NCBI GenBank assembly: GCA_965227295.1
Contig: OZ245742.1
Span: forward strand, 4,512,001-4,576,000
Reading direction: 5' to 3'
DNA length: 64,000 nucleotides
From: Leptonemataceae bacterium
GTDB taxonomy: Bacteria > Spirochaetota > Leptospiria > Leptospirales > Leptonemataceae
Made by a program: the position numbers and the translations under genes. Each line of letters opens with the position of its first letter. Positions within the stretch are counted from its first letter, which is position 1. The notes under the pieces are model-generated. The model searched no databases. It saw only the letters and a program-made list of their open reading frames with translations, and had not been told where the DNA came from. Below are positions 33,955-49,803 of the stretch, piece after piece.

Positions 33955-34379
33955 GTGGGGCGTGTGGCCACAGAGAACGGACGCGATCAGCGGAGCGATC
34001 ACGGAAAGAACTCACGGAAAGAACTCACGGAAAGAGGGCAAACATCACATGAGATATTGTTAGAGATTAAAGCACCAGGTGCCGCTGAAATCGAGTCCAC
34101 CTGGCAAGAACCCAACTGGATTATATATACGTCAATCGCGGCGACCAAAGACGTCCACGCTAACATATCTCGGCCGAACTCTAACCCCCGCCGCCCAGGT
34201 CGTGTCGTTTTTCTGGACAATCAAGGGAGTTCGAATTTCACGGCCAGCGCCGAGATCCCGCCGCGCACATCGTCGGTAATGCATCTGTGTATTTTGTGTG
34301 CGACGTCACGAAACCGCCGTACATAAATAGCGCGTGCAGGCGAAAACCCACCGGGTCTTCGCCTGCACGCGCGCGAACG

Positions 34380-34712
34380 TCACCAGCTCCAGCCGATTTC
34401 CTTTAACTGCTCCTTTTCTTCGGCTACGTCTTCTAACAGGTGGTCGGCGATCCGTTGCCAGTCCACTTTTTCGATGGCCCCCTGGAGTAACTCGCGCAAC
34501 AGTTCGGGAAGTTCGAGCCTGTGCAGATACTCCCGGTGACGATCTCTCAAGTGCGTGGCGAGTTGTTCTTCCTCGCCGTCACGAACACAATCGCAGGCAA
34601 TGCCCATAAACAAATCGTTGGTCGCCGTGTCTTTGTACATGCGCTCAGACACACACCACGTTTCGTAGTTGCCCCAACCGCAATAGTATTCGTTACTCCT
34701 TCCAGCCGTCAT
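34380..34712 (-). CDS. Hypothetical mobile-element protein (GWxNYETW motif, DUF7249-like), copy A
   Basis: YCGWGNYETWCV..VDWQRIA; third gene of overlapping operon. Confidence 0.6.
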   Translation of the reverse strand: MTAGRSNEYYCGWGNYETWCVSERMYKDTATNDLFMGIACDCVRDGEEEQLATHLRDRHREYLHRLELPELLRELLQGAIEKVDWQRIADHLLEDVAEEKEQLKEIGWSW

Positions 34713-34896
34713 CGCAGAGGACCTTCTCCGGCTCTTTGCCGATCAATTCCCGGAGCGGCGGACGCTTACGCAGGTCCGCCGCAATGAGATTGCGAATGTG
34801 CTGTGCCGTGTTCGCGAAGCGCGTGCGCAATTCGTAGCGCATGTCTTCGCTGATGCCGACCAGATACTGAACTGATTTTCTTCCCGGGTCTTTCAT
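34693..34896 (-). CDS. Small protein, possible ribbon-helix-helix, copy A
   Basis: MKDPGRKSVQYLVGISEDMRYELR..; SD AGGAGG; ATGA overlap. Confidence 0.45.
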   Translation of the reverse strand: MKDPGRKSVQYLVGISEDMRYELRTRFANTAQHIRNLIAADLRKRPPLRELIGKEPEKVLCDDGWKE

Positions 34897-35366
34897 GCTT
34901 CGGCCTCCTGGTCCAGGTCGTCGAAGAGCGGGTAGAAACGAGTGCTTTTCGGCGCTCCCAGGTAACACGCGCGGCGGAGTTCCTGGTCCCACTCGCAAGC
35001 GACCTGTTGAAGTTCGAGAAACACTTCTCGATTTACTTTTAAGAGGGAATTCAGCCGGGACGGCTGCGGTACCTTCACCGGGGTGTAGACCTCTTTGAAT
35101 TCACCGGTAGTTTCACTGGCGAGCAGAAACGGAAACCACTCATTGTCCGCCGTGATTTCGAACTGCATTTCGCGAGCGCACAGCCAGCGGCCGTTTGCTT
35201 GCTTGATGAACTGCGAAACGCCCAGGGCGGGGCGAGCGGTTGGACCCTCTCCCAGAAACTCGATGACGAGCAGCGGGTATTCTTCGTGCTCCACGCGGAT
35301 GGACTCGCACTGCTTGAGCGCTTCCATGCCTTCGTGACTGACGATGATTTTCTGAATTGTTTCCAT
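34893..35366 (-). CDS. Hypothetical mobile-element protein (DUF6908-like), copy A
   Basis: SD GGAGG; LVIEFLGEGP..EMQFEI resembles DUF6908 from recollection. Confidence 0.55.
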   Translation of the reverse strand: METIQKIIVSHEGMEALKQCESIRVEHEEYPLLVIEFLGEGPTARPALGVSQFIKQANGRWLCAREMQFEITADNEWFPFLLASETTGEFKEVYTPVKVPQPSRLNSLLKVNREVFLELQQVACEWDQELRRACYLGAPKSTRFYPLFDDLDQEAEA

Positions 35367-35527
35367 GTGATAGATTCCTCCGGGGGAAGGCTAAACACAC
35401 GGCGGCATACTGCAAGTTTAAACTCAAGGAAAGTTAATTTTTTGCTGACAAAAGCCCGGAGACATGCTAACATCACGAAATGTTACTCTAGTAAATGTCG
35501 ATGCACGAGGTCGCCCGCTTCTCTCTT

Positions 35528-35600
35528 TCAGGGGTGCGGGATTCGAACCCACTTCCCGGGGGACACAGTCCCGGATGTTAGCCGCATACACCAACCCCTA
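35528..35600 (-). tRNA. trnH: tRNA-His(GUG), array 1
   Basis: Loop CT-GTG-TC; GTTCGAATCC; one anticodon-stem mismatch. Confidence 0.75.
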
Positions 35601-35605
35601 TTGAA

Positions 35606-35679
35606 AATCCCGGCGAGGACTCGAACCCCGATCGACGGGGATAGAAGCCCCGTGCTTTTTCCCGTTAAGCTACCGGGAT
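35606..35679 (-). tRNA. trnR: tRNA-Arg(UCU), array 1
   Basis: CGGGG-CTTCTAT-CCCCG anticodon arm. Confidence 0.85.
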
Positions 35680-35682
35680 ACT

Positions 35683-35755
35683 TCGAAGCGGCTGGAATCG
35701 AACCAACACCAACGGCATATCAGAGCGTCGTTCTCAACCGTTAAACTACGCTTCG
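35683..35755 (-). tRNA. trnI: tRNA-Ile(GAU), array 1
   Basis: Loop CT-GAT-AT; acceptor CGAAGCG/CGCTTCG. Confidence 0.8.
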
Positions 35756-35759
35756 TATG

Positions 35760-35830
35760 CACCACGTAGGGGAGTCGAACCCCTGCTACTCGATCGACAA
35801 TCGGGCGTTCTACCGTTAAACTAATGCGGC
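35760..35830 (-). tRNA. trnD: tRNA-Asp(GUC), array 1
   Basis: Loop TT-GTC-GA; G73. Confidence 0.8.
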
Positions 35831-35836
35831 AAACTG

Positions 35837-35910
35837 TAGGGCCCGCGGGACTCGAACCCGCAATCTCCAGATTCGTAATCTGATGCCTTGATCCATTTGG
35901 CCAGGGCCCT
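35837..35910 (-). tRNA. trnR: tRNA-Arg(ACG), array 1
   Basis: TCAGA-TTACGAA-TCTGG. Confidence 0.9.
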
Positions 35911-35913
35911 GTG

Positions 35914-35987
35914 TTGGACTTGCAGGACTCGAACCTGCGGCCTTCCGCCTCGGAAGCGGGTGCTCTTTCCCTCTGAGCTAAAGTCCA
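35914..35987 (-). tRNA. trnR: tRNA-Arg(CCG), array 1
   Basis: CCCGC-TTCCGAG-GCGGA. Confidence 0.85.
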
Positions 35988-35990
35988 GTG

Positions 35991-36061
35991 TGGAGCCGGT
36001 GGGAATCGAACCCACATCTGTTGCTTGCAAAACAAAGATTCTCCCGTTAAACTACGGCCCC
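35991..36061 (-). tRNA. trnA: tRNA-Ala(UGC), array 1
   Basis: Loop TT-TGC-AA; G3:U70 identity pair. Confidence 0.85.
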
Positions 36062-36064
36062 GTG

Positions 36065-36138
36065 TACGGGCTGCTGGATTCGAACCAGCGATCTCCTGTT
36101 TGTAAGACAGGCGTTCTGACCTGCTAAACTAAGCCCGT
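36065..36138 (-). tRNA. trnV: tRNA-Val(UAC), array 1
   Basis: CCTGT-CTTACAA-ACAGG. Confidence 0.9.
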
Positions 36139-36141
36139 GTG

Positions 36142-36213
36142 TTGCGGCGAAAGGAATTGAACCTCCGTAGGACGGGTTATGAGCCCGTTGCATCGCCACT
36201 ATGCTACACCGCA
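36142..36213 (-). tRNA. trnM: tRNA-Met(CAU), initiator-like, array 1
   Basis: ACGGG-CTCATAA-CCCGT with three consecutive G-C pairs; TTCAA T-loop. Confidence 0.85.
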
Positions 36214-36219
36214 ATGTTT

Positions 36220-36294
36220 TGCCCGGTGCATGGATTCGAACCTGCAACCAGCGGTTTACAAAACCGCCGCTCTAACCATTGGAGCTAACCGGGC
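36220..36294 (-). tRNA. trnT: tRNA-Thr(UGU), array 1
   Basis: GCGGT-TTTGTAA-ACCGC. Confidence 0.9.
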
Positions 36295-36297
36295 GTG

Positions 36298-36369
36298 TGC
36301 ATCAGCAGGGAATCGAACCCTGATGATCTGCTTGGAAGACAGACATGTTGGCCGTTACATCACTGATGC
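36298..36369 (-). tRNA. trnG: tRNA-Gly(UCC), array 1
   Basis: TCTGT-CTTCCAA-GCAGA. Confidence 0.85.
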
Positions 36370-36373
36370 GTAT

Positions 36374-36447
36374 TCGTCGGGTTCGGGATCGAACCGAATT
36401 CTCTCGCTTTTCAGGCGAGCGCTCATGACCACACCTGCTCCCCGACG
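36374..36447 (-). tRNA. trnF: tRNA-Phe(GAA), array 1
   Basis: CTCGC-CTGAAAA-GCGAG. Confidence 0.8.
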
Positions 36448-36504
36448 TTCGTCTTGTTCTTCTTAAAGTCACTTTCGCTCATATTTACTCCTTAGTGCGA
36501 AATG

Positions 36505-36576
36505 TGGGTCCGGTGGGATTCGAACCCACGGCCATCCGATTAAAAGTCGGATGCTCTACCCCCGAGCTCCGGACCC
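36505..36576 (-). tRNA. trnK: tRNA-Lys(UUU), array 1
   Basis: TCCGA-CTTTTAA-TCGGA. Confidence 0.9.
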
Positions 36577-36577
36577 G

Positions 36578-36616
36578 CTATTCTCTAAATGTCTTCTTGT
36601 CATCTTCGCTCTTCAT
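36578..36616 (-). CDS. Mini-ORF MKSEDDKKTFRE between tRNA-Gly and tRNA-Lys
   Basis: SD AGGAG; identical peptide in array 2 with synonymous ACA/ACG change. Confidence 0.4.
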   Translation of the reverse strand: MKSEDDKKTFRE

Positions 36617-36641
36617 GGCGTATCTCCTGTTGCTTATGATG

Positions 36642-36714
36642 TGCACCGCAAGAGACTCGAACTCTTCCCTGCTGCATGGCACACAGCTATGCTTGCCACT
36701 AACACCAGCGATGC
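36642..36714 (-). tRNA. trnG: tRNA-Gly(GCC), array 1
   Basis: GCTGT-GTGCCAT-GCAGC. Confidence 0.8.
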
Positions 36715-36723
36715 GTTTAAACG

Positions 36724-36757
36724 AAAAAACCCTCCAGGGAGTCGGCCGGGGAGGGTT
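36724..36757 (-). terminator. Attenuator terminator before 14-tRNA cluster, array 1
   Basis: AACCCTCC..GGAGGGTT stem plus U-tract. Confidence 0.8.
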
Positions 36758-36784
36758 CTTCATGAATGCGTTTGCAGATTCTTC

Positions 36785-36901
36785 TCAGCAACGCATGCGC
36801 AGAACTCCTCCGGCGATCCGGCCGTCCTTATGGCCCGCATCGATCCGCATCCCGATAAATCGGGCGGTTCTCACAACCGTTGCTGTTACTGTTAAGCTCA
36901 T
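36785..36901 (-). CDS. Leader peptide MSLTVTATVVRTARFIGMRIDAGHKDGRIAGGVLRMRC (array 1)
   Basis: 38 codons; residues 4-33 are exclusively amino acids of the downstream tRNAs; 3' part complementary to terminator 5' arm. Confidence 0.75.
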   Translation of the reverse strand: MSLTVTATVVRTARFIGMRIDAGHKDGRIAGGVLRMRC

Positions 36902-36951
36902 GATAGAATACTCAGACGAATCCCTTGTTAAATTTCTTATAAAAATATCTT

Positions 36952-37023
36952 TGCCGACGCAGGGAATCGAAACCTGATTACCGCAGTGAAAGTGCGAGGT
37001 CCTTGCCTTTAGACGACGCCGGC
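36952..37023 (-). tRNA. trnE: tRNA-Glu(UUC), array 1
   Basis: TCGCA-CTTTCAC-TGCGG; T-stem has one mismatch in this copy. Confidence 0.75.
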
Positions 37024-37119
37024 GATTTGAGTTGAAACGTAGTTAGGTCCACGTTCCCGTTCTCGCGGCATCGCTCCAGCTGACACGTATGTACGTCCTG
37101 CGCGGTTCATTATACTATG

Positions 37120-37190
37120 AGACATGGGTGGGATTCGAACCCACGTAAACGGCTTTGCAGACCGCCCGCTGGCCTCTCGCGCACCATGTC
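37120..37190 (-). tRNA. trnC: tRNA-Cys(GCA), array 1
   Basis: GCGGT-CTGCAAA-GCCGT; U73. Confidence 0.8.
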
Positions 37191-37285
37191 GGGTTTACTC
37201 TGGCTTGCGGCGGTCGGTAACATCGTTCTCTGTCTTCCATATCTCCCTCATAACACTTGAAAAATAAGCAAAATGCCCATAAACG

Positions 37286-37319
37286 AAAAAAGGCGAGCCG
37301 TTGATCCGGGCTCGCCTTT
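37286..37319 (-). terminator. Attenuator terminator before Cys/Glu tRNAs, array 1
   Basis: AAAGGCGAGCC..GGCTCGCCTTT plus U-tract. Confidence 0.8.
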
Positions 37320-37343
37320 CGCATCCAGCAGGTTACACTGAAT

Positions 37344-37451
37344 CTAAGACGAGCGCATGACTCCCTGAAACACATCACGCTCACAACCCGCATGAATCAT
37401 GCCGGCCTTCGCGAGGTCTCGTTCCGTTCTATGTTGGCGCTTCGGCGACAT
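37344..37451 (-). CDS. Leader peptide MSPKRQHRTERDLAKAGMIHAGCERDVFQGVMRSS (array 1)
   Basis: 35 codons downstream of a TTGACG -35 box; GCTCGTCTT at 3' end pairs with terminator 5' arm. Confidence 0.55.
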   Translation of the reverse strand: MSPKRQHRTERDLAKAGMIHAGCERDVFQGVMRSS

Positions 37452-37531
37452 TCCGTTTCCTGAATACTTACTTGGTATTCGACGTCAACAACTTCATAAA
37501 GATTTAAATATTTTTTTCATGGAACTCAATG

Positions 37532-37604
37532 TTCCGGGAGATGGATTCGAACCATCAACCCCCGACTTCAAAGGCCGGTGTTCTACCCGTTGAACTACCC
37601 CGGA
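37532..37604 (-). tRNA. trnQ: tRNA-Gln(UUG), array 1
   Basis: CCGGC-CTTTGAA-GTCGG; U1-A72. Confidence 0.85.
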
Positions 37605-37612
37605 ATGAGTTG

Positions 37613-37684
37613 CACCGGAGGCAGGACTCGAACCTGCATAGAACGCATTAACATTGCGTCGCCTTACCATTAGGCTACTCCGGT
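37613..37684 (-). tRNA. trnN: tRNA-Asn(GUU), array 1
   Basis: ACGCA-ATGTTAA-TGCGT; G73. Confidence 0.85.
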
Positions 37685-37688
37685 ATTC

Positions 37689-37766
37689 TGGCAGAGGGAA
37701 CAGGATTCGAACCTGTGAACATCGGATTTGGAGTCCGACAGCTTGGACCGCTCGACTCATCCCTCT
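37689..37766 (-). tRNA. trnW: tRNA-Trp(CCA), array 1
   Basis: TCGGA-CTCCAAA-TCCGA; encoded GCCA end. Confidence 0.85.
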
Positions 37767-37769
37767 ATG

Positions 37770-37842
37770 TCGGCGTGGTGGGACTTGAACCCACGACCCC
37801 CGGTTCCCGAAACCGGTGCTCTACACCCTGAGCTATACGCCG
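37770..37842 (-). tRNA. trnP: tRNA-Pro(CGG), array 1
   Basis: CCGGT-TTCGGGA-ACCGG; C1-G72, A73. Confidence 0.9.
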
Positions 37843-38814: not shown

Positions 38815-38985
38815 TAGAGTCTCCACTGAAGAGATTTGCGACCTCGTGCATCGACATTTACTAGAGTAACATTTCGTGATGTTAGCATGTCTCCGGGCTT
38901 TTGTCAGCAAAAAATTAACTTTCCTTGAGTTTAAACTTGCAGTATGCCGCCGTGTGTTTAGCCTTCCCCCGGAGGAATCTATCAC

Positions 38986-39459
38986 ATGGAAACAATTCAG
39001 AAAATCATCGTCAGTCACGAAGGCATGGAAGCGCTCAAGCAGTGCGAGTCCATCCGCGTGGAGCACGAAGAATACCCGCTGCTCGTCATCGAGTTTCTGG
39101 GAGAGGGTCCAACCGCTCGCCCCGCCCTGGGCGTTTCGCAGTTCATCAAGCAAGCAAACGGCCGCTGGCTGTGCGCTCGCGAAATGCAGTTCGAAATCAC
39201 GGCGGACAATGAGTGGTTTCCGTTTCTGCTCGCCAGTGAAACTACCGGTGAATTCAAAGAGGTCTACACCCCGGTGAAGGTACCGCAGCCGTCCCGGCTG
39301 AATTCCCTCTTAAAAGTAAATCGAGAAGTGTTTCTCGAACTTCAACAGGTCGCTTGCGAGTGGGACCAGGAACTCCGCCGCGCGTGTTACCTGGGAGCGC
39401 CGAAAAGCACTCGTTTCTACCCGCTCTTCGACGACCTGGACCAGGAGGCCGAAGCATGA
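38986..39459 (+). CDS. Hypothetical mobile-element protein (DUF6908-like), copy B
   Basis: Identical to 34893-35366. Confidence 0.55.
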   Translation: METIQKIIVSHEGMEALKQCESIRVEHEEYPLLVIEFLGEGPTARPALGVSQFIKQANGRWLCAREMQFEITADNEWFPFLLASETTGEFKEVYTPVKVPQPSRLNSLLKVNREVFLELQQVACEWDQELRRACYLGAPKSTRFYPLFDDLDQEAEA

Positions 39460-39659
39460 AAGACCCGGGAAGAAAATCAGTTCAGTATCTGGTCGGCATC
39501 AGCGAAGACATGCGCTACGAATTGCGCACGCGCTTCGCGAACACGGCACAGCACATTCGCAATCTCATTGCGGCGGACCTGCGTAAGCGTCCGCCGCTCC
39601 GGGAATTGATCGGCAAAGAGCCGGAGAAGGTCCTCTGCGATGACGGCTGGAAGGAGTAA
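39456..39659 (+). CDS. Small protein, possible ribbon-helix-helix, copy B
   Basis: Identical to 34693-34896. Confidence 0.45.
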   Translation: MKDPGRKSVQYLVGISEDMRYELRTRFANTAQHIRNLIAADLRKRPPLRELIGKEPEKVLCDDGWKE

Positions 39660-39972
39660 CGAATACTATTGCGGTTGGGGCAACTACGAAACGTGGTGTG
39701 TGTCTGAGCGCATGTACAAAGACACGGCGACCAACGATTTGTTTATGGGCATTGCCTGCGATTGTGTTCGTGACGGCGAGGAAGAACAACTCGCCACGCA
39801 CTTGAGAGATCGTCACCGGGAGTATCTGCACAGGCTCGAACTTCCCGAACTGTTGCGCGAGTTACTCCAGGGGGCCATCGAAAAAGTGGACTGGCAACGG
39901 ATCGCCGACCACCTGTTAGAAGACGTAGCCGAAGAAAAGGAGCAGTTAAAGGAAATCGGCTGGAGCTGGTGA
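39640..39972 (+). CDS. Hypothetical protein (DUF7249-like), copy B
   Basis: Identical to 34380-34712. Confidence 0.6.
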   Translation: MTAGRSNEYYCGWGNYETWCVSERMYKDTATNDLFMGIACDCVRDGEEEQLATHLRDRHREYLHRLELPELLRELLQGAIEKVDWQRIADHLLEDVAEEKEQLKEIGWSW

Positions 39973-39982
39973 CGTTCGCGCG

Positions 39983-40028
39983 CGTGCAGGCGAAGACCCG
40001 GTGGGTTTTCGCCTGCACGCGCTATTTA
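39983..40028 (+). terminator. Long hairpin after 3-gene operon (mirror copy near 34325-34370)
   Basis: GCGTGCAGGCGAAGACCC..GGGTTTTCGCCTGCACGC followed by TATTTAT. Confidence 0.6.
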
Positions 40029-40316
40029 TGTACGGCGGTTTCGTGACGTCGCACACAAAATACACAGATGCATTACCGACGATGTGCGCGGCGGGATCTC
40101 GGCGCTGGCCGTGAAATTCGAACTCCCTTGATTGTCCAGAAAAACGACACGACCTGGGCGGCGGGGGTTAGAGTTCGGCCGAGATATGTTAGCGTGGACG
40201 TCTTTGGTCGCCGCGATTGACGTATATATAATCCAGTTGGGTTCTTGCCAGGTGGACTCGATTTCAGCGGCACCTGGTGCTTTAATCTCTAACAATATCT
40301 CATGTGATGTTTGCCC

Positions 40317-41328
40317 TCTTTCCGTGAGTTCTTTCCGTGAGTTCTTTCCGTGAGTTCTTTCCGTGAGTTCTTTCCGTGAGTTCTTTCCGTGAGTTCTTTC
40401 CGTGAGTTCTTTCCGTGAGTTCTTTCCGTGAGTTCTTTCCGTGAGTTCTTTCCGTGAGTTCTTTCCGTGAGTTCTTTCCGTGAGTTCTTTCCGTGAGTTC
40501 TTTCCGTGAGTTCTTTCCGTGAGTTCTTTCCGTGAGTTCTTTCCGTGAGTTCTTTCCGTGAGTTCTTTCCGTGAGTTCTTTCCGTGAGTTCTTTCCGTGA
40601 GTTCTTTCCGTGAGTTCTTTCCGTGAGTTCTTTCCGTGAGTTCTTTCCGTGAGTTCTTTCCGTGAGTTCTTTCCGTGAGTTCTTTCCGTGAGTTCTTTCC
40701 GTGAGTTCTTTCCGTGAGTTCTTTCCGTGAGTTCTTTCCGTGAGTTCTTTCCGTGAGTTCTTTCCGTGAGTTCTTTCCGTGAGTTCTTTCCGTGAGTTCT
40801 TTCCGTGAGTTCTTTCCGTGAGTTCTTTCCGTGAGTTCTTTCCGTGAGTTCTTTCCGTGAGTTCTTTCCGTGAGTTCTTTCCGTGAGTTCTTTCCGTGAG
40901 TTCTTTCCGTGAGTTCTTTCCGTGAGTTCTTTCCGTGAGTTCTTTCCGTGAGTTCTTTCCGTGAGTTCTTTCCGTGAGTTCTTTCCGTGAGTTCTTTCCG
41001 TGAGTTCTTTCCGTGAGTTCTTTCCGTGAGTTCTTTCCGTGAGTTCTTTCCGTGAGTTCTTTCCGTGAGTTCTTTCCGTGAGTTCTTTCCGTGAGTTCTT
41101 TCCGTGAGTTCTTTCCGTGAGTTCTTTCCGTGAGTTCTTTCCGTGAGTTCTTTCCGTGAGTTCTTTCCGTGAGTTCTTTCCGTGAGTTCTTTCCGTGAGT
41201 TCTTTCCGTGAGTTCTTTCCGTGAGTTCTTTCCGTGAGTTCTTTCCGTGAGTTCTTTCCGTGAGTTCTTTCCGTGAGTTCTTTCCGTGAGTTCTTTCCGT
41301 GAGTTCTTTCCGTGAGTTCTTTCCGTGA
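40317..41328. repeat. Perfect 13-bp tandem repeat (TCTTTCCGTGAGT), about 78 copies
   Basis: Directly visible; 1012 nt / 13; no spacers. Confidence 0.97.
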
Positions 41329-41356: not shown

Positions 41357-43340
41357 GTCGCGGTAGAACGGCCGGTTGCCCGGCCGCCCCCGCACAGATC
41401 CCGGCGTGCGGTATTCTCGCACCGGGCTCTTCGAAAGCACTCGCTTCCACATAAAGTCAATTCAGAGTAAGTCGCAACTGAGATACTGGTCGTTCCATGA
41501 TGCGCGGTTTTTCGATCCGGTAGTGCGCCATCAGATCCCTCAGCCCCTGCCAGTCCAGACTCCGGCGCTGACTGCGCCGATTGAGCCACTTGTACAGATT
41601 CATTTCCACCTGATAGTAGAAGCTTCGTATACTCTTGTAGTTGCATTGGACGCCATAATAGTTATAGTATCCACGCAGCCGGGAGTTCAGAAGATTGAAG
41701 AACCTGCGCATGGGTAGATGCCGATTCGCTTTAATCCACTGCTTCACATTCTGGATCGACGCATGCAATCGCTTTGGAGCGGTGCGACGCGGAACCCACC
41801 AGAACCCCTTTCGAGAACGAGCCCAGCGGTATTCAAAGCCTAGAAATACGAACGCCTCACGCCCGGTATTGAACTTCGCGCGGAAGCCCGGGCGCTCGAA
41901 ACTTTTCACTCCTGACTTTTCCGGCGCCAGTTCCAGACCAAACTTTCGCAAACGTTTTCCAAGCGTCGCATAGAATTTCAGCGCATCGTCTTTGGATTCA
42001 AAGGCGCAAACAAAATCGTCCGCGTATCGACACATATAGGCCGGTCTCTTGCAGTGCTTCTTCACCACTTTCTCGAACCAGAGGTCCAGTACGTAATGAA
42101 GATAGACGTTCGCCAGAACCGGACTGATCACGCCGCCTTGAGGAGTCCCAGCGGTCGGGCGCGAGACCTGACCGTTTACCTCCAGCACGCCTGCTTTCAG
42201 CCACTTGCGAATCAGACCGAGAAAGGCCCGATCATCGATTCGTTGCTCCAGCATTCGCATCAACCAATCATGGTCAATGTTGTCGAAGAAACCCTTGATG
42301 TCGGCTTCCACAATCCAGCCGAGCTTCCCCGGACTCAAAGTTGAACTCAGAGTCTTCGAAGCCTCACGCGGACCGGTGTTCGGCCGATAACCATACGAAC
42401 ACGACAGGAAGTCTTGCTCATAGATCGCTTCAAGGATACGCGTCGCGCATGTTTGTACCAGTTTGTCTTCGAGGGCCGGCAATCCAAGCGGACGTTGTTT
42501 TCCGTCCGCTTTCGGGATAAAGACCCTGCGAATCAGTTTTGTTCGGTATCGTTTCTGTTTTAAGCGTTCCACCAGATCCCCGACATTTTCCGTAAGGTTC
42601 GCTTCGTAGTCGCGAAACGTTTCACGGTCCACGCCCGGAGCCGCCCGGCGATTCATTCCTGCGAACGAATCTTCGAGATTCATCTGGTTGAGCATCCCAT
42701 ACAGATTACGAAACAGATGTTTCTTACTCCTCCTCGCTTTATTTGCTATTGCCCGTAGTGAGGTTTGCATCAGTTGTTCCGATCCTGCCGTCCGGCTGAT
42801 GTTGACTCTGCGAGCTGCGTACTTTCGTCAGCCCCTTCCCCGATCATCGCGCATCGCACGCGAAGACCGAACCCGTCGAAACTCCATTCGAGTTTCATTC
42901 GATTCTGTGGACGGCTCTCCCGCCCTCTGAGTACTATGGGCTGATCCGACTCCCCGTTGATCATCATTCTTCCTTGTTCATTCGGTCAGAATTACCTTCG
43001 CTATCGTCGAAGGAACCAACGGGGTCTCCCGGGTTCCACGATGTTTCTCTGCATACATGCCGCGCTCAAGCGACCCCGACAGACCTCCAGAATCTCGCTA
43101 AAACGATTCCTTTGTGCTGGTTTCCATCTGACCAATGATGTCACCGTCTGCATCTATGGCATTTTACGAGGCTCAACAGCTTCCGGGAGTGTGGACTCCC
43201 CTACGGCCTGCATGCTTCCCTGTGTACGCTTCGTGTGGCGGTTACCCGCTTCCACGCAACACTCGGTAGAAGTTGTTCGCTAAACTTTACTTCATATGGA
43301 CTTTCACCTTATCAGAAACATCGGGCTTTGCCCGGCGCAC
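41357..43340 (-). mobile_element. Group II intron, 1984 nt
   Basis: 5' GTGCG at 43340; domain V GAGCCCGGTGCGAGAATACCGCACGCCGGGATC; 3' ..CTACCGCGAC; exons rejoin to TGGCCA|CAGAGAAC seen intact at 33965-33978. Confidence 0.95.
41457..42770 (-). CDS. ltrA: Group II intron reverse transcriptase/maturase without endonuclease domain
   Basis: IPKADGKQRPLG, SYGYRP, EADIKGFFD, PQGG, RYADD, FLGF, domain X LRGYYNYY; no C-terminal HNH. Confidence 0.95.
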   Translation of the reverse strand: MQTSLRAIANKARRSKKHLFRNLYGMLNQMNLEDSFAGMNRRAAPGVDRETFRDYEANLTENVGDLVERLKQKRYRTKLIRRVFIPKADGKQRPLGLPALEDKLVQTCATRILEAIYEQDFLSCSYGYRPNTGPREASKTLSSTLSPGKLGWIVEADIKGFFDNIDHDWLMRMLEQRIDDRAFLGLIRKWLKAGVLEVNGQVSRPTAGTPQGGVISPVLANVYLHYVLDLWFEKVVKKHCKRPAYMCRYADDFVCAFESKDDALKFYATLGKRLRKFGLELAPEKSGVKSFERPGFRAKFNTGREAFVFLGFEYRWARSRKGFWWVPRRTAPKRLHASIQNVKQWIKANRHLPMRRFFNLLNSRLRGYYNYYGVQCNYKSIRSFYYQVEMNLYKWLNRRSQRRSLDWQGLRDLMAHYRIEKPRIMERPVSQLRLTLN

Positions 43341-43505
43341 TGGCCACACGCCCCACGCATTTGTGGCCACAAATTCAGCCGTGGGCAGCAAGTTTCTTGC
43401 CGGCCATCCAGAACCGAAACATCAGCCGGATATGCGCGGCGATCTCCGCTTCCACGGACAGCTTTTTCGATCTGCGTTTCGCTGGCTCCGCAGAAAAATT
43501 GATCC

Positions 43506-44688: not shown

Positions 44689-44754
44689 ATGCACTTCCCA
44701 CAGAGCAACTGGCCCCAACAGAATCCCGGCATCTGCCTGGAGGTGGTCGTGTAG
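44689..44754 (+). CDS. Leader peptide MHFPQSNWPQQNPGICLEVVV (array 2)
   Basis: AGGT SD-like sequence upstream; P/Q/N/W run conserved. Confidence 0.8.
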   Translation: MHFPQSNWPQQNPGICLEVVV

Positions 44755-44783
44755 TGCTCTGAGCAACAGCGCGTTTGCGCGAG

Positions 44784-44817
44784 AACCCCCTCCGGCGGAA
44801 GCTTGAGGGGGTTTTTT
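44784..44817 (+). terminator. Attenuator terminator (Pro/Trp/Asn/Gln cluster), array 2
   Basis: AACCCCCTC..GAGGGGGTTTTTT. Confidence 0.85.
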
Positions 44818-44823
44818 ATTATC

Positions 44824-44896
44824 CGGCGTGTAGCTCAGGGTGTAGAGCACCGGTATCGGGAACCGGGGGTCGTGGGTTCAAGTCCCACCACGCCGA
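44824..44896 (+). tRNA. trnP: tRNA-Pro(CGG), array 2
   Basis: CCGGT-ATCGGGA-ACCGG. Confidence 0.85.
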
Positions 44897-44899
44897 CAT

Positions 44900-45076
44900 A
44901 GAGGGATGAGTCGAGCGGTCCAGGCTGTCGGACTCCAAATCCGATGTTCACAGGTTTTTGTGCATGGATGCACTTATGCCGCGGAGGACAGGAAGTCCGG
45001 GAGCGGCCGAATCCTGAAAGAGGAAGATGCTACGCATCTTTCATCTTACTGACGCGCTGCGCTTGTCCCTCTGCCA
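44900..45076 (+). pseudogene. trnW: tRNA-Trp(CCA) with two insertions (44957-45007 in T-loop; 45017-45065 in T-stem 3' side), array 2
   Basis: Alignment to intact copy 37689-37766. Confidence 0.85.
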
Positions 45077-45080
45077 GAAT

Positions 45081-45152
45081 ACCGGAGTAGCCTAATGGTA
45101 AGGCGACGCACTGTTAATGCGTTCTATGCAGGTTCGAGTCCTGCCTCCGGTG
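45081..45152 (+). tRNA. trnN: tRNA-Asn(GUU), array 2
   Basis: ACGCA-CTGTTAA-TGCGT. Confidence 0.9.
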
Positions 45153-45160
45153 CAACTCAT

Positions 45161-45294
45161 TCCGGGGTAGTTCAACGGGTAGAACACCGGCCTTTGAAGT
45201 CGGGGGCGCAAATAGACTTTTGCCTTATGGCAAAAGTCGGCGGTTCGGAGTTGTGCGGCAACGCACAACTCCGGGTCCTCACCATCTCCCGGAG
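45161..45294 (+). pseudogene. trnQ: tRNA-Gln(UUG) with T-arm 5' half replaced by 75-nt double-hairpin insert (45207-45281), array 2
   Basis: Alignment to 37532-37604. Confidence 0.8.
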
Positions 45295-45374
45295 CATTGA
45301 GTTCTATGAAAAAAATATTTAAATCTTTATGAAGTTGTTGACGTCGAATACCGAGTAAGTAATCAGGAAACGGA

Positions 45375-45482
45375 ATGTCGCAGAAGCGCCTACAGACAAC
45401 GGAACGAGACCTCGCGAAGGCCGGCATGATTCATGCGGGTTGTGAGCGTGATGTGTTTCAGGGAGTCATGCGCTCGTCTTAG
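45375..45482 (+). CDS. Leader peptide MSQKRLQTTERDLAKAGMIHAGCERDVFQGVMRSS (array 2)
   Basis: Same length as array 1 copy; residues 9-35 identical. Confidence 0.55.
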   Translation: MSQKRLQTTERDLAKAGMIHAGCERDVFQGVMRSS

Positions 45483-45506
45483 ATTCAGTGTAACCTGCTG
45501 GATGCG

Positions 45507-45540
45507 AAAGGCGAGCCCGGATCAACGGCTCGCCTTTTTT
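45507..45540 (+). terminator. Attenuator terminator (Cys/Glu cluster), array 2
   Basis: AAAGGCGAGCC..GGCTCGCCTTTTTT. Confidence 0.8.
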
Positions 45541-45635
45541 CGTTTATGGGCATTTTGCTTATTTTTCAAGTGTTATGAGGGAGATATGGAAGACAGAGAA
45601 CGATGTTACCGACCGCCGCAAGCCAGAGTAAACCC

Positions 45636-45758
45636 GACATGGTGCGCGAGAGGCCAGCGGGCGGTCTGCAAAGCCGTTTAACGTGGGTTTGTGTGCAGGG
45701 ATGCACTTATGCCGCGAAGGACAGGATGTCCGGGAGCGGCCGAATCCCACCCATGTCT
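45636..45758 (+). pseudogene. trnC: tRNA-Cys(GCA) with 51-nt T-loop insertion (45690-45740), array 2
   Basis: GGTT[insert]CGAATCC versus 37120-37190. Confidence 0.85.
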
Positions 45759-45854
45759 CATAGTACAATGAACCGCGCAGGACGTACATATGTATCAGCC
45801 GGAGCGATGCCGCGAGAGCGGGAACGTGGATCAAGCTACGTTTCAACTCAAATC

Positions 45855-45926
45855 GCCGGCGTCGTCTAACGGCAAGGACGCTGCACTTTCACTGCGGTAA
45901 TCGGGGTTCGATTCCCCGCGTCGGCA
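45855..45926 (+). tRNA. trnE: tRNA-Glu(UUC), array 2
   Basis: Loop CT-TTC-AC; intact T-arm CGGGG-TTCGATT-CCCCG. Confidence 0.85.
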
Positions 45927-45976
45927 AAGGTATTTTCATAAGAAATTTAACAATGGATTCGTCTGAGTATTCTATC

Positions 45977-46093
45977 ATGAGCTTAACAGTAACAGCAACG
46001 GTTGTAAGGACCGCCCGATTTATCGGGATGCGGATCGATGCGGGCCATAAGGACGGCCGGATCGCCGGAGGAGTTCTGCGCATGCGTTGCTGA
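45977..46093 (+). CDS. Leader peptide MSLTVTATVVRTARFIGMRIDAGHKDGRIAGGVLRMRC (array 2)
   Basis: Same peptide as array 1; differences seen (GTG/GTA, AGA/AGG) are synonymous. Confidence 0.78.
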   Translation: MSLTVTATVVRTARFIGMRIDAGHKDGRIAGGVLRMRC

Positions 46094-46120
46094 GAAGAAT
46101 CTACAGACGCATTCATGAAG

Positions 46121-46154
46121 AACCCTCCCCGGCCGACGCCCTGGAGGGTTTTTT
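46121..46154 (+). terminator. Attenuator terminator (large cluster), array 2
   Basis: AACCCTCC..GGAGGGTTTTTT. Confidence 0.8.
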
Positions 46155-46163
46155 CGTTTATAC

Positions 46164-46236
46164 GCATCGCTGGTGTCAGTGGCAAGCATAGCTGTGTGCC
46201 ATGCAGCAGGGAAGAGTTCGAGTCTCTTGCGGTGCA
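46164..46236 (+). tRNA. trnG: tRNA-Gly(GCC), array 2
   Basis: Matches 36642-36714. Confidence 0.8.
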
Positions 46237-46301
46237 CATTACAGAAAACAGGAGGTACGCCATGAAGAGCGAAGATGACAAGAAGACGTTTAGAGAATAG
46301 C

Positions 46302-46419
46302 GGGTCCGGAGCTCGGGGGTAGAGCATCCGACTTTTAATCGGATGGCGATCGGTTGAGTGCTTCGCACTCTCATCTTACTCCCGCCTTTCAGTTGGGGGT
46401 TCGAATCCCACCGGACCCA
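46302..46419 (+). pseudogene. trnK: tRNA-Lys(UUU) with ~46-nt insertion at variable loop/T-stem (~46348-46394), array 2
   Basis: Alignment to 36505-36576. Confidence 0.8.
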
Positions 46420-46477
46420 CATTTCAAGTAGCGAGGTTAATATGAACGAAAGTGACTTTAAGAATAATAAGACGGAA

Positions 46478-46550
46478 CGTCGGGGAGCAGGTGTGGTCAT
46501 TGCATCCGGTTGAAGCCCGGAGGAATTCGGTTCGATCCCGAGCCCGACGA
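46478..46550 (+). tRNA. trnF: tRNA-Phe(GAA), array 2
   Basis: TCCGG-TTGAAGC-CCGGA. Confidence 0.8.
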
Positions 46551-46554
46551 ATAC

Positions 46555-46677
46555 GCATCAGTGATGTAACGGTCAACATGTCTGTCTTCCAAACAGATCA
46601 TCAGGGTTTTTGGCCATGGATGGCCTTATGCCGCGGAGGACAGGAGGTCCGAGAGCGGCCGATTCCCTGCTGATGCA
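46555..46677 (+). pseudogene. trnG: tRNA-Gly(UCC) with 51-nt T-loop insertion (46609-46659), array 2
   Basis: GGTT[insert]CGATTCC versus 36298-36369. Confidence 0.85.
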
Positions 46678-46680
46678 CAC

Positions 46681-46755
46681 GCCCGGTTAGCTCCAATGGT
46701 TAGAGCGGCGGTTTTGTGAACCGCTGGTTGCAGGTTCGAATCCGTGCACCGGGCA
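46681..46755 (+). tRNA. trnT: tRNA-Thr(UGU), array 2
   Basis: GCGGT-TTTGTGA-ACCGC. Confidence 0.85.
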
Positions 46756-46761
46756 AAACAT

Positions 46762-46833
46762 TGCGGTGTAGCATAGTGGCGATGCAGCGGGCTCATAACC
46801 CGTCCTACGGAGGTTCAATTCCTTCCGCCGCAA
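46762..46833 (+). tRNA. trnM: tRNA-Met(CAU), initiator-like, array 2
   Basis: GCGGG-CTCATAA-CCCGT. Confidence 0.85.
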
Positions 46834-46836
46834 CAT

Positions 46837-46959
46837 ACGGGCTTAGGACGCAATATAAACGCCTGTCTTACAAACAGGAGATCGCTGGTTTTTGTGCATG
46901 GATGCACTTATGCCGCGGAGGCCAGGAGGGCCGAGAGCGGCCGAATCCGGCAGCCCGTA
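46837..46959 (+). pseudogene. trnV: tRNA-Val(UAC) with 51-nt T-loop insertion (46891-46941) and altered D-arm, array 2
   Basis: Alignment to 36065-36138. Confidence 0.85.
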
Positions 46960-46962
46960 CAT

Positions 46963-47033
46963 GGGGCCGTAGTTTAACGGGAGAATCTTTGTTTTGCAAA
47001 CAAGGGACGTCGGTTCGATTCCGACCGGTTCCA
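46963..47033 (+). tRNA. trnA: tRNA-Ala(UGC), array 2
   Basis: Loop TT-TGC-AA; G3:U70. Confidence 0.85.
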
Positions 47034-47038
47034 CAAAT

Positions 47039-47163
47039 TGGACTTTAGCTCAGAGGGACAGAGCGCCCGTTTCCGAAGCGGTAGGCCGCAGGTTTTTGGC
47101 CACGGATGGCCTTATGCCGCGAAGGACAGGAGGTCCGAGAGCGGCCGAGTCCTGCAAGTCCAA
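47039..47163 (+). pseudogene. trnR: tRNA-Arg(CCG) with 51-nt T-loop insertion (47095-47145), array 2
   Basis: GGTT[insert]CGAGTCC versus 35914-35987. Confidence 0.85.
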
Positions 47164-47166
47164 CAC

Positions 47167-47240
47167 AGGGCCCTGGCCAAATGGATCAAGGCATCAGATT
47201 ACGAATCTGAAGATTGCGGGTTCGAGTCCCGCGGGCTCTA
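47167..47240 (+). tRNA. trnR: tRNA-Arg(ACG), array 2
   Basis: TCAGA-TTACGAA-TCTGA. Confidence 0.9.
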
Positions 47241-47243
47241 CAT

Positions 47244-47314
47244 GCCGCGTTAGTTTAATGGTAGAACTCCTGATTGTCTCTCAGGGGGCGAGGGTTCGAT
47301 TCCCTCACGTGGTG
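47244..47314 (+). tRNA. trnD: tRNA-Asp(GUC), array 2
   Basis: CCTGA-TTGTCTC-TCAGG. Confidence 0.85.
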
Positions 47315-47318
47315 CATA

Positions 47319-47430
47319 CGAAGCGTAGTTTAACGGTTGAGAACGACGGTCTGATATGCCGTTGGTTAAAGACGAAGATTCAGCGTTATGCGTGAACGCA
47401 TAACGCTGGGTTCGATTCCAGCCGCTTCGA
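47319..47430 (+). pseudogene. trnI: tRNA-Ile(GAU) with ~39-nt hairpin insertion at variable loop/T-stem, array 2
   Basis: Extra TAAAGACGAAGATTCAGCGTTATGCGTGAACGCATAAC versus 35683-35755. Confidence 0.8.
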
Positions 47431-47433
47431 AGC

Positions 47434-47451
47434 ATCCCGGTAATCGGGATT
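47434..47451 (+). pseudogene. Collapsed tRNA-Arg(UCU): only acceptor-stem ends remain, array 2
   Basis: ATCCCGGTA-ATCGGGATT in the syntenic position of 35606-35679. Confidence 0.7.
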
Positions 47452-47456
47452 TTCAT

Positions 47457-47529
47457 AAGGGGTTGGTGTATGTGGCTAACATCCGGGATTGTGTCTCCCG
47501 GGCAGTGGGTTCGAATCCCGCACCCCTGA
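47457..47529 (+). tRNA. trnH: tRNA-His(GUG), array 2
   Basis: CGGGA-TTGTGTC-TCCCG. Confidence 0.8.
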
Positions 47530-47690
47530 AAGAGAGAAGCGGGCGATCTCATGCATCGATATTTACTAGAGTAACATTGCATGATGTTAGCATGTCGCCA
47601 GGTTTTTGTCAGCAAAAAATTAACTTTCCTTGAGTTTAAACTTGTAATATGCCGCCATGTATTTAGCCTTCCCCCGGAGGAAACTATCAC

Positions 47691-48542
47691 ATGGAAACAA
47701 TTCAGAAAATCATCGTCAGTCACGAAGGCATGGAAGCGCTCAAACTGTGCGAGTCCATCCGCGTGGAACACGAAGAATACCCTCTGCTCGTCATAGAGTT
47801 TCTGGGACAGGGGCCCACCGCTCGCCCCGCCGTGGGCGTTTCGCAGTTCATCAAGCAAGCGGGTAAACATCAGCCGGATATGCGCGGCAATCTCCCCTTC
47901 CACAGACAACTTTTTCGATCTACGTTTCGCTGGCTCCGCAGAAATAAATGCGAGAAACCGGCGGACGTCCGCGAGGCCTGCGTCCGCGAGGCGCTGAAGA
48001 TCATTGAAAAACACGGCGTGGAAAATCTGAGCCTGCGCCAGGTCGCCCGGCGCCTGAAGCTTTCTCATCAGGCCCCGTACAAACACTTCGCGAGCAAAGA
48101 TCATCTGCTCGCGGAAATCATTGAGCGCGGTTTTGTCACGTTCGCGGAGTATCTCGAACGCGACGCAAAATCGAAGCAGGCCAATCGCAACCTGCGCAGC
48201 CTCGGCAAGGCTTACATCCGCTTCGCCCTGGACTATCCGCTCTACTACCGGCTCATGTTCTCGTCGCCGCATCCGCCGGCGAAAGAACATCCCGGCATGG
48301 CAGCCCGCAGCAAGGCCACCTTCGAGATCTTACGCGATCGCGTCCGCGACATGCAGTCCATGACCGGAGCGCGGCGCGACGTGGACGCGGAGGCCCTGTT
48401 CATCTGGTCGACCATGCACGGCCTTGCTTCGATTCTTTCCTGGGAACACGTAAACGGACTGCCGATCGGCGGCCGGGACCGCCGACGGTACATTACGCAC
48501 GTATTGAATCGCATCGGGGATGCGTTGCGATTCAATGATTGA
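47691..48542 (+). CDS. Chimeric ORF: truncated DUF6908-like N-terminus + island end + TetR/AcrR regulator (WHG-type C-terminus)
   Basis: First ~57 aa match 38986 ORF; from ~47955 LSLRQVARRLKLSHQAPYKHFASKDHLL HTH and WSTMHG. Confidence 0.7.
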   Translation: METIQKIIVSHEGMEALKLCESIRVEHEEYPLLVIEFLGQGPTARPAVGVSQFIKQAGKHQPDMRGNLPFHRQLFRSTFRWLRRNKCEKPADVREACVREALKIIEKHGVENLSLRQVARRLKLSHQAPYKHFASKDHLLAEIIERGFVTFAEYLERDAKSKQANRNLRSLGKAYIRFALDYPLYYRLMFSSPHPPAKEHPGMAARSKATFEILRDRVRDMQSMTGARRDVDAEALFIWSTMHGLASILSWEHVNGLPIGGRDRRRYITHVLNRIGDALRFND

Positions 48543-48549
48543 GCTCTAT

Positions 48550-49803
48550 CAGGCTGCTGAAAAAGTCATTCGAAAGCGGAATCTGTGAAATTCATTTGGG
48601 CGTTGCGCCCGGCCGGGCCGCACACAAGTCGCGGTCGTAGCGACTTGTGAACCCGACGAGGCGCAAGGCGCGTCGCTCCATTCCGCCGACCGGGCGCCGG
48701 GCTGCTCCGGGCTCCGCGTTCGCTTCGGTCCTCCGTGCTTCGCACTCCGGACTGCCGCTGCGCGGCACCCTGCACATCCCTAACGCTTGTATTTCGCAAG
48801 TTAGCATTCGCGATCATGCTGCTGCCTCCTGTAGGTTTCTGATTCGCAGCAAGTTGTAGACGGCAACAGCGAAACGGAAAATCCATTGAGCGGTGCGGTG
48901 ATCGACGGCACTGGAGCGGCTCTTCTGTGCGATGTGCGGCACAATCCGGTTCGCTTTAAGTTCTTCTACGAAAGCTTTAGTATCGTAGCCTTTGTCGGCG
49001 CCCGGAGTGATGCGGCGGCGATCTTTGCTTCGGCGTAGTTCCTTCATGAAGATGGCTGCCGCATCGCGTTCCGCCGTTCCGGTCGCGTGTGTCACGCCGG
49101 CCATCACGGCGAGGCCGTGACGATTTTCCATAAGGACATGCCCCATATACACCAGCCGGGCCTCTTTGCCGTTGCCTTTGCGAAACAGCTTCGCATCCGG
49201 ATCGGTAGTGGATTCGTGCGTATCGTTGCGGCGTTTTTCACCGTGAAAACTTACGGACGGATTGCCCGGGTCACAGGCTCGCTGCGGCTTCCAGCAACGT
49301 GGCATCCACGGTGAAATGTTCGTCGCTGATCAGCCCGCGATCATCCGCCACTTCCAGAACGCCGCGAAAGAATTCGTCGGCGATGCCGCCTTCCATCAGA
49401 CGGTCGCGATTCTTTGAAGAGACGCTCGCATCCCAGACGGGATCGTCGGCGCTCAACCCGATGAACCAACGATACAGCAGATTGTAGTTCGTTTGCTCCA
49501 TCAACTGACGTTCGCTGCGGACGCTGAACAACACTTGCAGCAACAGAGCGCGCAACAGGTACTCCGGCGGAATCGAGGGCCACCCGAAAGCCGGATACAT
49601 TTCATCAAATCGATCGCTAAGATTCGCGAGGACCGCATCCGTCAACTTGCGAATGTCACGCAACGGATGGTTGGCCGGAATCCGGTCCTCCATCGAAACG
49701 TGACTCCAGATACTCGGTTGCTTTTCTTCTTCGCCGCGCATGCGACGAAATCTGAACAAGCACCGCTAAATCGCCAGGAGATTTCGACTTTTTCAGCAGC
49801 CTG
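48550..49803 (-). mobile_element. IS5-family insertion sequence, decayed
   Basis: 18-bp perfect terminal IRs CAGGCTGCTGAAAAAGTC / GACTTTTTCAGCAGCCTG; 4-bp target duplication CTAT. Confidence 0.9.
48814..49742 (-). pseudogene. IS5 transposase pseudogene
   Basis: VRSERQLME..YRWFIG, VDAT then frameshift near 49300; HESTTDPDA, GADKGYD; C-terminal region with catalytic Glu appears deleted. Confidence 0.85.

Follow-up and report, generated by a model that had tools for sequence, protein, structure and literature searches.

The window analysed here is a stretch of 64,000 nucleotides (nt) from the genome of a Leptonemataceae bacterium (contig OZ245742.1 of assembly GCA_965227295.1, positions 4,512,001 to 4,576,000 of the forward strand), and our subject is a 51-nt structured insert that interrupts five of its tRNA genes at one and the same position of the T-loop. 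The window contains two paralogous tRNA arrays that share their gene order and are inverted relative to each other. Array 1 (35528..37842, minus strand) comprises 20 tRNA genes, all of them intact according to ARAGORN. Array 2 (44824..47530, plus strand), which runs from Pro to His, has 11 genes that are called intact and eight that are interrupted or rearranged, namely Trp, Gln, Cys, Lys, Gly-UCC, Val, Arg-CCG and Ile; Arg-UCU is missing. When array 2 (44701-47700, plus strand) is compared by BLASTN with the reverse complement of array 1, the two align in collinear blocks of 88-99% identity. Both arrays lie on an island of low GC content (47-55% from approximately 27.5 to 48 kb, against 60-65% outside), which adjoins tRNA-Ser(CGA) at 27409-27495. 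Among its contents are a large serine integrase in split form, a group II intron and the reverse transcriptase belonging to it, fragments of IS5 and long perfect inverted repeats. The island is flanked by ordinary housekeeping genes, and the nearest look-alikes of one flanking protein belong mostly to Pseudomonadota.

Plain decay does not describe the state of array 2. Against the Rfam tRNA model, the genes without an interruption reach scores at least as high as those of their partners in array 1 (59.1 versus 49.7 bits for Glu, 61.1 versus 51.2 bits for Asp), and the exons of the interrupted genes show 11 differences from array 1 in 580 aligned bases, compared with 34 in 782 for the uninterrupted genes, a count from which Arg-UCU is excluded, being without a counterpart in array 2.

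Five inserts at a single bond of the T-loop

The five copies occupy 44957..45007 in the tRNA-Trp(CCA) paralogue, 45690..45740 in tRNA-Cys(GCA), 46609..46659 in tRNA-Gly(UCC), 46891..46941 in tRNA-Val(UAC), where the D arm of the gene has also been replaced, and 47095..47145 in tRNA-Arg(CCG); all are on the plus strand and in the sense orientation of the host gene. ARAGORN and Rfam recognise the five array 1 paralogues as normal tRNAs and do not call the five interrupted genes. BLASTN opens gaps of exactly 51 nt in Cys, Gly-UCC, Val and Arg-CCG, while the gap in Trp measures 109 nt (44957-45065) and holds the 51-mer together with a second insert. The corresponding empty sites in array 1, all on the minus strand, are the bonds 37710/37709 (Trp), 37138/37137 (Cys), 36316/36315 (Gly), 36083/36082 (Val) and 35932/35931 (Arg). 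Pairwise alignment of the five filled and empty sites places every insert between GGTT and CGA, that is between T55 and C56, with no duplication of target bases, and the junctions cannot be shifted because the first T and the last C of the insert differ from the adjoining target bases. A preliminary description of this DNA, made from the sequence alone, had reported inserts of equal length at this position, in one orientation, lacking a target duplication and with array 1 supplying the empty alleles, and the alignments bear it out on each of these points; its consensus for the insert is correct overall, except that the Cys copy opens with TGTG and not with TTTG.

The copies are 84-94% identical to one another. 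Each folds into a P1 hairpin of 5 base pairs (bp), a UUAU linker, a helix P2 (5 bp), a 3x4 internal loop and a P3 hairpin (4 bp), with folding energies of -21 to -23.2 kcal/mol and z-scores of -2.7 to -3.6. A degenerate 35-nt pattern of the unit has exactly five matches in the 64 kb, all on the plus strand (0.00 expected from 100 shuffles), and the same five copies are the only ones that a covariance model finds in the window. Several familiar structures were tried and set aside. The ends of the insert (TTTG at one side, GCGGC at the other) form no terminal inverted repeat and the five filled and empty pairs lack a duplication, unlike a classical miniature inverted-repeat transposable element (MITE); an integron attC-type junction (G followed by TT) does not match, as the 3' junction reads GCGGC followed by CGA; and the asymmetry of the GRA/GRGA internal loop is unlike that of the k-turn consensus.

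A dispersed family with a conserved fold

A pattern with 20 fixed positions was used to scan one genome per species and returned 40 loci. Inspection of their flanks and P1 identified 31 as true members and nine as chance matches, with coding-like flanks and no P1. The 31 loci derive from 23 assemblies, most of which bear gammaproteobacterial labels (Woeseiaceae, Oceanospirillaceae, Cellvibrionales, Sedimenticola and unclassified bins), and a single assembly can contribute several unrelated loci, such as L006, L026 and L035. A covariance model (R1), built from 34 distinct copies, extends the family to 50 copies (E<=1e-5), of which five belong to the window and the other 45 to the 31 loci, and recovers copies that the pattern had missed, for example three more in L036. 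The units are 50-52 nt long and begin with a (U)UUU head.

All three helices are backed by covariation. Pairing holds in 96.8% of the 623 cells of the R1 alignment, while slid controls reach no more than 39.6%; eight of the 14 pairs change on both sides, and the observed covariation was reached by none of 500 shuffles. The compensatory changes pointed out in the five window copies, GTGCA/TGCAC versus GGCCA/TGGCC and GGAC/GTCC versus GGCC/GGCC, are likewise correct, and the family as a whole is constrained by structure. Units are also modular, each module consisting of a U-rich linker and a GGA hairpin, as seen from a copy in L026 that has P2 and P3 only and from one in L036 with an extra P1. 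In one assembly a 216-nt repeat has the 51-mer as its 5' end; the two copies of this repeat, on separate contigs (L016, 3611-3826; L030, 5318-5533), are 98% identical, and a longer composite repeat is therefore present in that genome.

Not one of the 45 copies from other genomes is located in a tRNA gene. The element had been proposed to target tRNA genes, which the wider family does not support, its other members sitting typically behind intrinsic terminators or in tandem arrays; what is borne out of that proposal is a repeated mini-element, constrained in structure, whose behaviour is that of a mobile one, with five precise insertions in one orientation, no target duplication and empty paralogous sites. 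The P2/P3-only copy of L026 lies just upstream of another tRNA array. That array (3393-10037, in a Pseudomonadota bin) has 18 genes, encloses a GOLLD-like RNA (141 bits, the gathering score being 150) which itself contains a tRNA, and has as neighbours the genes of an HNH endonuclease and of RtcB, an RNA ligase.

We found no description of this family, as far as searches of the literature and of Rfam show. No Rfam family covers the 51-mer (Rfam 15, at the gathering threshold over the whole window and at E<=10 over 44700-47700), and no copy was found in plasmid or phage collections with a 59-nt query (BLASTN, distant mode); the 3-kb array, compared with the phage collection, matched only at ordinary tRNA genes. 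Literature searches on CsrA, repeats, MITEs, sponges and T-loop insertions yielded no account of it among the top-ranked matches inspected, and a text search placed six 14-17-nt strings of the element in no paper. A known family of repetitive extragenic palindromic (REP) sequences or MITEs without preference for tRNA genes, raised at the outset as an alternative identity, was accordingly not encountered, even though the tRNA preference itself has proved absent.

Copies behind terminators and in tandem arrays

Among 32 first copies, a count that keeps orthologous loci separate (L024/L028/L040 and L006/L018), 19 directly follow a terminator-like GC-rich hairpin with a T-run, compared with 5 of 600 control TTT positions at the same loci, and a T precedes the copy at 12 of the remaining 13 sites. 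The T-rich head always faces the terminator, so that the element lies in the terminator's sense; with a crude call of open reading frames (ORFs), the upstream gene is co-oriented at 19 of the 30 sites that have one. Terminators and T-loops share a site rule, in which a G/C-rich strand of a stem is followed by at least two T and then by the element, and the target is not duplicated. In several loci the units are repeated head to tail every 50-52 nt, namely in L028 (4.5 units), L010/L021, L040, L020, L035 and L023-25, and a terminator of their own behind them is not consistently present. Copy number differs among the orthologous loci L024, L028 and L040.

These three loci belong to Woeseiaceae bins, and in L028 (9974-10330) the tandem array follows phaR, the gene of a PHB (polyhydroxybutyrate) accumulation regulator, the order being phaR, a promoter-like TTGACA-18-TAATTT, a transcript of about 100 nt, a strong terminator and the element array. 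Elsewhere units precede genes: those of L025 (9830-10051) lie about 45 nt upstream of the start codon of a product that appears Obg-like by eye, and in L022 and L039 a unit lies some 50-60 nt upstream of a conserved start codon.

The landing site of the element is common to group IIC introns, which, according to PMC1702495, insert directly after the hairpin and T's of an intrinsic terminator and in the terminator's orientation. Those introns, at about 2 kb, combine a ribozyme with a reverse transcriptase, whereas the 51-mer has no intron domains, and the group II intron of the window (41.4-43.3 kb) is neither adjacent to the element nor visibly linked to it.

Genes near the copies were searched for a source of mobility. 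The 141 ORFs of the island yielded only the serine integrase, the group II reverse transcriptase and the IS5 fragments as mobility genes in Pfam. Neither a transposase linked to the element nor csrA was found among window ORFs (Pfam, on 21 and then on 141) or among 14 island ORFs compared with PHROGs. The 55 ORFs near copies in seven loci are housekeeping genes by Pfam, with no transposase and no csrA, and clustering of 1021 ORFs from 31 loci revealed no protein family that recurs near copies beyond orthologous synteny. A Y1 (HUH) transposase was not found in the island, within about 10 kb of copies or in the other ORFs scanned.

Hairpin loops and the CsrA motif

The loops of the unit are conserved while its stems vary, and CA(N)GGA(N)G occupies 46 of 50 P1 loops and 47 of 50 P3 loops. 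It is the GGA loop motif that CsrA/RsmA recognises and that E. coli CsrB carries as its repeat unit. The consensus selected in vitro (SELEX) for CsrA is RUACARGGAUGU, with GGA in a hairpin loop (PMC4347634), and the CsrA dimer binds two such hairpins (PMC7366521). P1 hairpins of several copies, such as those in L004, L007 and L028 (AUACAGGGAUGUAU, GUACAGGGAUGUAC), fit this consensus at 12 of 12 positions. The two loops lie about 25 nt apart and therefore each unit offers two sites, as a CsrA dimer would use; array 2 carries ten hairpins within 2.2 kb. Two marks of a Csr/Rsm-type module are therefore present in the unit, namely GGA in an apical loop and at least two sites that a dimer could bridge.

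For comparison, the 369 nt of csrB from E. coli K-12 (L041) include ten CA.?GGA.G motifs, and the hairpins of that gene, CACCAGGATGGTG among them, share the form of P1 and P3. A detector that requires a 3-bp stem and a CA(N)GGA(N)G loop found eight hairpins in the 5.5-kb E. coli csrB locus, all eight inside csrB on the sense strand. The same detector found 79 hairpins in 2,955 nt of elements and 67 in 1.25 Mb of background (both strands), an enrichment that is in part built in, since it was by sequence that the family had been identified.

The element resembles CsrB, CsrC and RsmX-Z in its short hairpins, whose stems vary and whose loops read CA(N)GGA(N)G, in its U/A-rich linkers and in the presence of several hairpins per RNA. 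Those RNAs, however, are encoded by single-locus genes with their own promoter and terminator, while the element is a dispersed 51-nt unit, often post-terminator or in tandem; it adds the clamping helix P2, sits inside tRNA genes in the window and matches no Csr/Rsm model of Rfam. Closer in position are the E. coli RNAs RrA, RrB and RrF, which are described in PMC8144298 as small RNAs lying between dual terminators, made by read-through and bound by CsrA in vitro. They resemble the element in their place after a first terminator, in their GGA hairpin loops and in a link to stable-RNA operons; they occur at three rRNA-operon loci of one lineage, and unlike the element are neither dispersed nor found inside a tRNA body.

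Interpretation

We propose that the inserts are copies of a dispersed module of two GGA hairpins, predicted to bind CsrA, that has come to lie in T-loops of a tRNA array which is redundant and carried by the island; judged from sequence, this reading has in our view about an even chance of being right. Binding of CsrA by the hairpins is probable on the likeness of their loops, and we infer that the units act as RNA, are transcribed, bind CsrA dimers and may have some decoy effect. Units behind terminators would be made by read-through transcription, as for E. coli RrA/B/F, and a precedent for mobile elements that bear parts of the Csr system exists in the csrA alleles often found on them (PMC7366521). 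In array 2, five units have inserted in sense at the 3' edge of the TT of GGTTCGA, and the interrupted genes would be transcribed with the array, the tRNA ends lending the products defined and stable termini; end processing of the tRNA kind would leave RNAs of about 125 nt, with ten hairpins of CsrB type among them. For translation the interrupted genes are probably no longer of use, a role that array 1 can fill. That T-loop capture has turned a mobile CsrA-binding cassette, able to rewire the Csr regulon from sites behind terminators or in 5' leaders, into a stable, highly expressed, island-borne sponge of ten GGA hairpins, scaffolded by the fold and processing of the tRNA, with which the mobile element manipulates the global post-transcriptional regulation of its host, is a further step, and one that we hold doubtful.

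The family combines known kinds, being at once a REP-like dispersed hairpin repeat and a mimic module of Csr/Rsm type. That five tRNA genes should be interrupted so precisely in their T-loops is the family's most unusual manifestation, and we found no bacterial precedent for it. In the current view, a small number of dedicated genes for sponge RNAs tune Csr/Rsm regulation. If the proposal is correct, a dispersed, mobile-looking unit of two hairpins, conserved by covariation across at least 23 assemblies, would represent a new route by which CsrA sites spread through genomes, and CsrA binding would explain the pile-up of copies behind terminators. Engineered 'tRNA scaffolds' exist, and the T-loop RNAs, if stable, would be a natural counterpart of them as well as a sponge RNA carried by a mobile element. 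Should CsrA binding fail, the unit would still be a new structured repeat with an unusual landing rule, the 3' edge of a T-run after a G/C stem.

The family might instead be a purely selfish DNA element of REP/PATE type, its hairpins recognised as single-stranded DNA by an HUH (Y1) or other transposase acting in trans; it would insert 3' of a T-run on one replication strand, its likeness to CsrA targets would be coincidental and the five tRNA genes would merely have been knocked out. We consider this somewhat unlikely, and the evidence is divided. Several observations weigh against a CsrA-binding module, and some of them favour a selfish element directly. All five insertions fall in array 2, on the plus strand, among 46 GGTTCGA sites in the window, and the 16 equivalent sites of array 1, on the minus strand, are empty (hypergeometric p = 0.002, or 0.09 if only plus-strand sites are eligible); this clustering could reflect replication-strand bias, local spread or selection protecting array 1. 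Wobble in the stems does not favour the RNA strand, there being four G-U and four A-C cells, with nine more A-C where the loop is closed, and this leaves room for recognition of the hairpins as DNA. Additional lesions are present in Trp and Val, as expected of plain pseudogenes. The covariation of P2 rests on few matches found by the model only (UA 2, AU 1, GU 1), the invariance of this helix among pattern-derived matches being circular because the pattern fixed 20 positions. Three canonical terminators in array 2 (approximately 44786-44817, 45510-45541 and 46124-46154) have no copy behind them, although in other genomes terminators are where the element usually sits; they were read from the sequence. 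The Rfam Csr/Rsm models are not matched in the window, the best score being 12.5 bits for RsmY at 46837-46956 (gathering score 57), and no Csr/Rsm family appears in the five array-bearing loci at E<=1. A csrA gene was seen neither in the island nor in the loci, which cover about 20 kb of each genome, and a short regular expression for the CsrA N-terminal motif had no match in any of the six frames. Insertions that are precise, oriented and free of target duplication, many copies at unrelated loci of single assemblies and a copy number that varies among the orthologous L024, L028 and L040 also suit a selfish element. What argues against it is the failure to find a linked Y1 transposase, REP-associated tyrosine transposase (RAYT) or other transposase among the island ORFs or those near copies, together with the architecture of the unit itself. 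A REP is an imperfect palindrome headed by GT(A/G)G and often arranged in inverted doublets, and in REP sequences and IS200/IS605 ends it is the stems rather than the loops that are conserved. The alignments of the element show a TTT(T) head, no GTAG, arrays that are all head-to-tail and no inverted doublets or terminal inverted repeat, and its loops are conserved while its stems vary, the reverse of that pattern; its modules of U-rich linker and GGA hairpin resemble instead the architecture of Csr/Rsm RNAs. With REP sequences, bacterial interspersed mosaic elements and their RAYT, and with IS200/IS605 mini-elements, it nonetheless shares the form of a short extragenic hairpin repeat at gene 3' ends, in many copies or arrays and with no target duplication.

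The preliminary description had offered a tiny removable intervening sequence as its other explanation, by which the 51-mer would be excised from the pre-tRNA, or the transcript cleaved to a two-piece tRNA, and the genes would stay functional. The exons of the five host genes are indeed little diverged (10 of 364 aligned bases), and removal of the insert in silico restores a tRNA recognisable to ARAGORN in three of the five, Cys, Gly-UCC and Arg-CCG, but Trp, with its second insert, and Val, with its lost D arm, stay defective. In the precursor folds of those same three genes the junctions lie in a multiloop closed by the T-stem, with no bulge-helix-bulge, and we know of no splicing endonuclease in bacteria, which counts further against an intron. 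Mobile bulge-helix-bulge tRNA introns of the Thermoproteales, and the group I introns of tmRNA, recall the present case by inserting in the T-loop after a U and by the spread of one small insert among tRNA genes; both are spliced, by themselves or by an endonuclease, whereas the element has neither catalytic core nor bulge-helix-bulge and also lives outside tRNAs. The T-loop is an established bacterial intron site, group I introns occurring in that of tmRNA (PMC11915505). Yet no intron or ribozyme family of Rfam is matched over 44700-47700 at E<=10, the only intron match of the window being at 43063-43304, and 51 nt is far below any self-splicing core, in agreement with the earlier remark that the insert is too short for a group I or II intron. 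An RtcB ligase gene adjoins the island-type tRNA array of L026, and none was found by Pfam among the ORFs of the present island. With the same element at 45 sites outside tRNAs, we find no evidence for an intron and regard this explanation as very improbable. Still less credible is an artefact, in which the inserts or array 2 as a whole would be mis-joined repeats of a metagenome assembly. The region is rich in repeats, among them two inverted pairs (1516 and 623 bp) and a 13-mer in 77.8 copies, all of them perfect, and the source genome is not among the matches in the species-level collection; against this, the five copies differ mutually, at 84-94% identity and only at positions that vary in the family, and sit at an identical T-loop bond each time, in flanks with independent substitutions relative to array 1, and because of these three features an artefact is scarcely to be entertained.

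Other lesions of array 2

The second insert of Trp (45017..45065, plus strand; about 49 nt) is unrelated to the 51-mer and lies at the junction of T-stem and acceptor, where it consists of a hairpin, the 10-mer TCATCTTACT and about 15 nt. An insert of about 49 nt in the variable region of Lys (46348..46396, plus strand) has the same architecture and the same 10-mer. Their stems differ compensatorily (AAGATGC/GCATCTT versus GAGTGC/GCACTC) and the last 15 nt or so end in TTG; the two represent a second family of mini-inserts, with an insertion point that is not the same in the two tRNAs. In the Gln paralogue the 3' half (45207..45281, plus strand) is rearranged and contains two perfect palindromic hairpins, and the Ile paralogue carries in its variable region a 42-nt insert (47367..47408, plus strand) with a perfect 12-bp hairpin, the stems of the hairpins in Gln and Ile measuring 10, 11 and 12 bp. 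Ile (48.6 bits) and Lys (49.4 bits) are nevertheless scored as tRNAs that have a long extra arm.

Other features of the island

The large serine integrase is apparently split in two overlapping ORFs on the minus strand (27316-29252), with Recombinase domains at 27316-28965 and a Resolvase N-terminus at 28812-29252. At the other edge of the island lie pieces of an IS5-type transposase (DDE_Tnp_1 and DUF772; 48817-49759, minus strand). A TetR gene (47691-48539) has a DUF6908 N-terminus fused to it in frame. The group II intron (41364-43339, minus strand) appears complete, with an Rfam D1-D4 match of 130.7 bits at 43063-43304 and a reverse transcriptase/maturase ORF at 41460-42770; its 5' end, GTGCG near 43339, domain V, near 41420-41455, and the other end of the intron were positioned by eye.

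Perfect inverted repeats of 1516 bp (33999-35514 and 38838-40353; 100% identity) enclose array 1 together with divergent Ser and Leu tRNA genes, and a second perfect inverted pair of 623 bp (27490-28112 and 33013-33635) begins at the 3' end of tRNA-Ser(CGA). A segment of 80-140 bp is present three times (33626-33765, 43356-43495 and 47865-47948). These inverted and triplicated repeats suggest that the island is built of invertible or nested modules. Immediately 3' of the group II intron, on its minus strand, a 13-nt unit containing ACGGA on that strand is repeated 77.8 times at 100% identity (40317-41328), a block that could be a recent expansion or an artefact of assembly; a version of 2.8 copies stands at the other arm of the longer inverted repeat (33999-34035).

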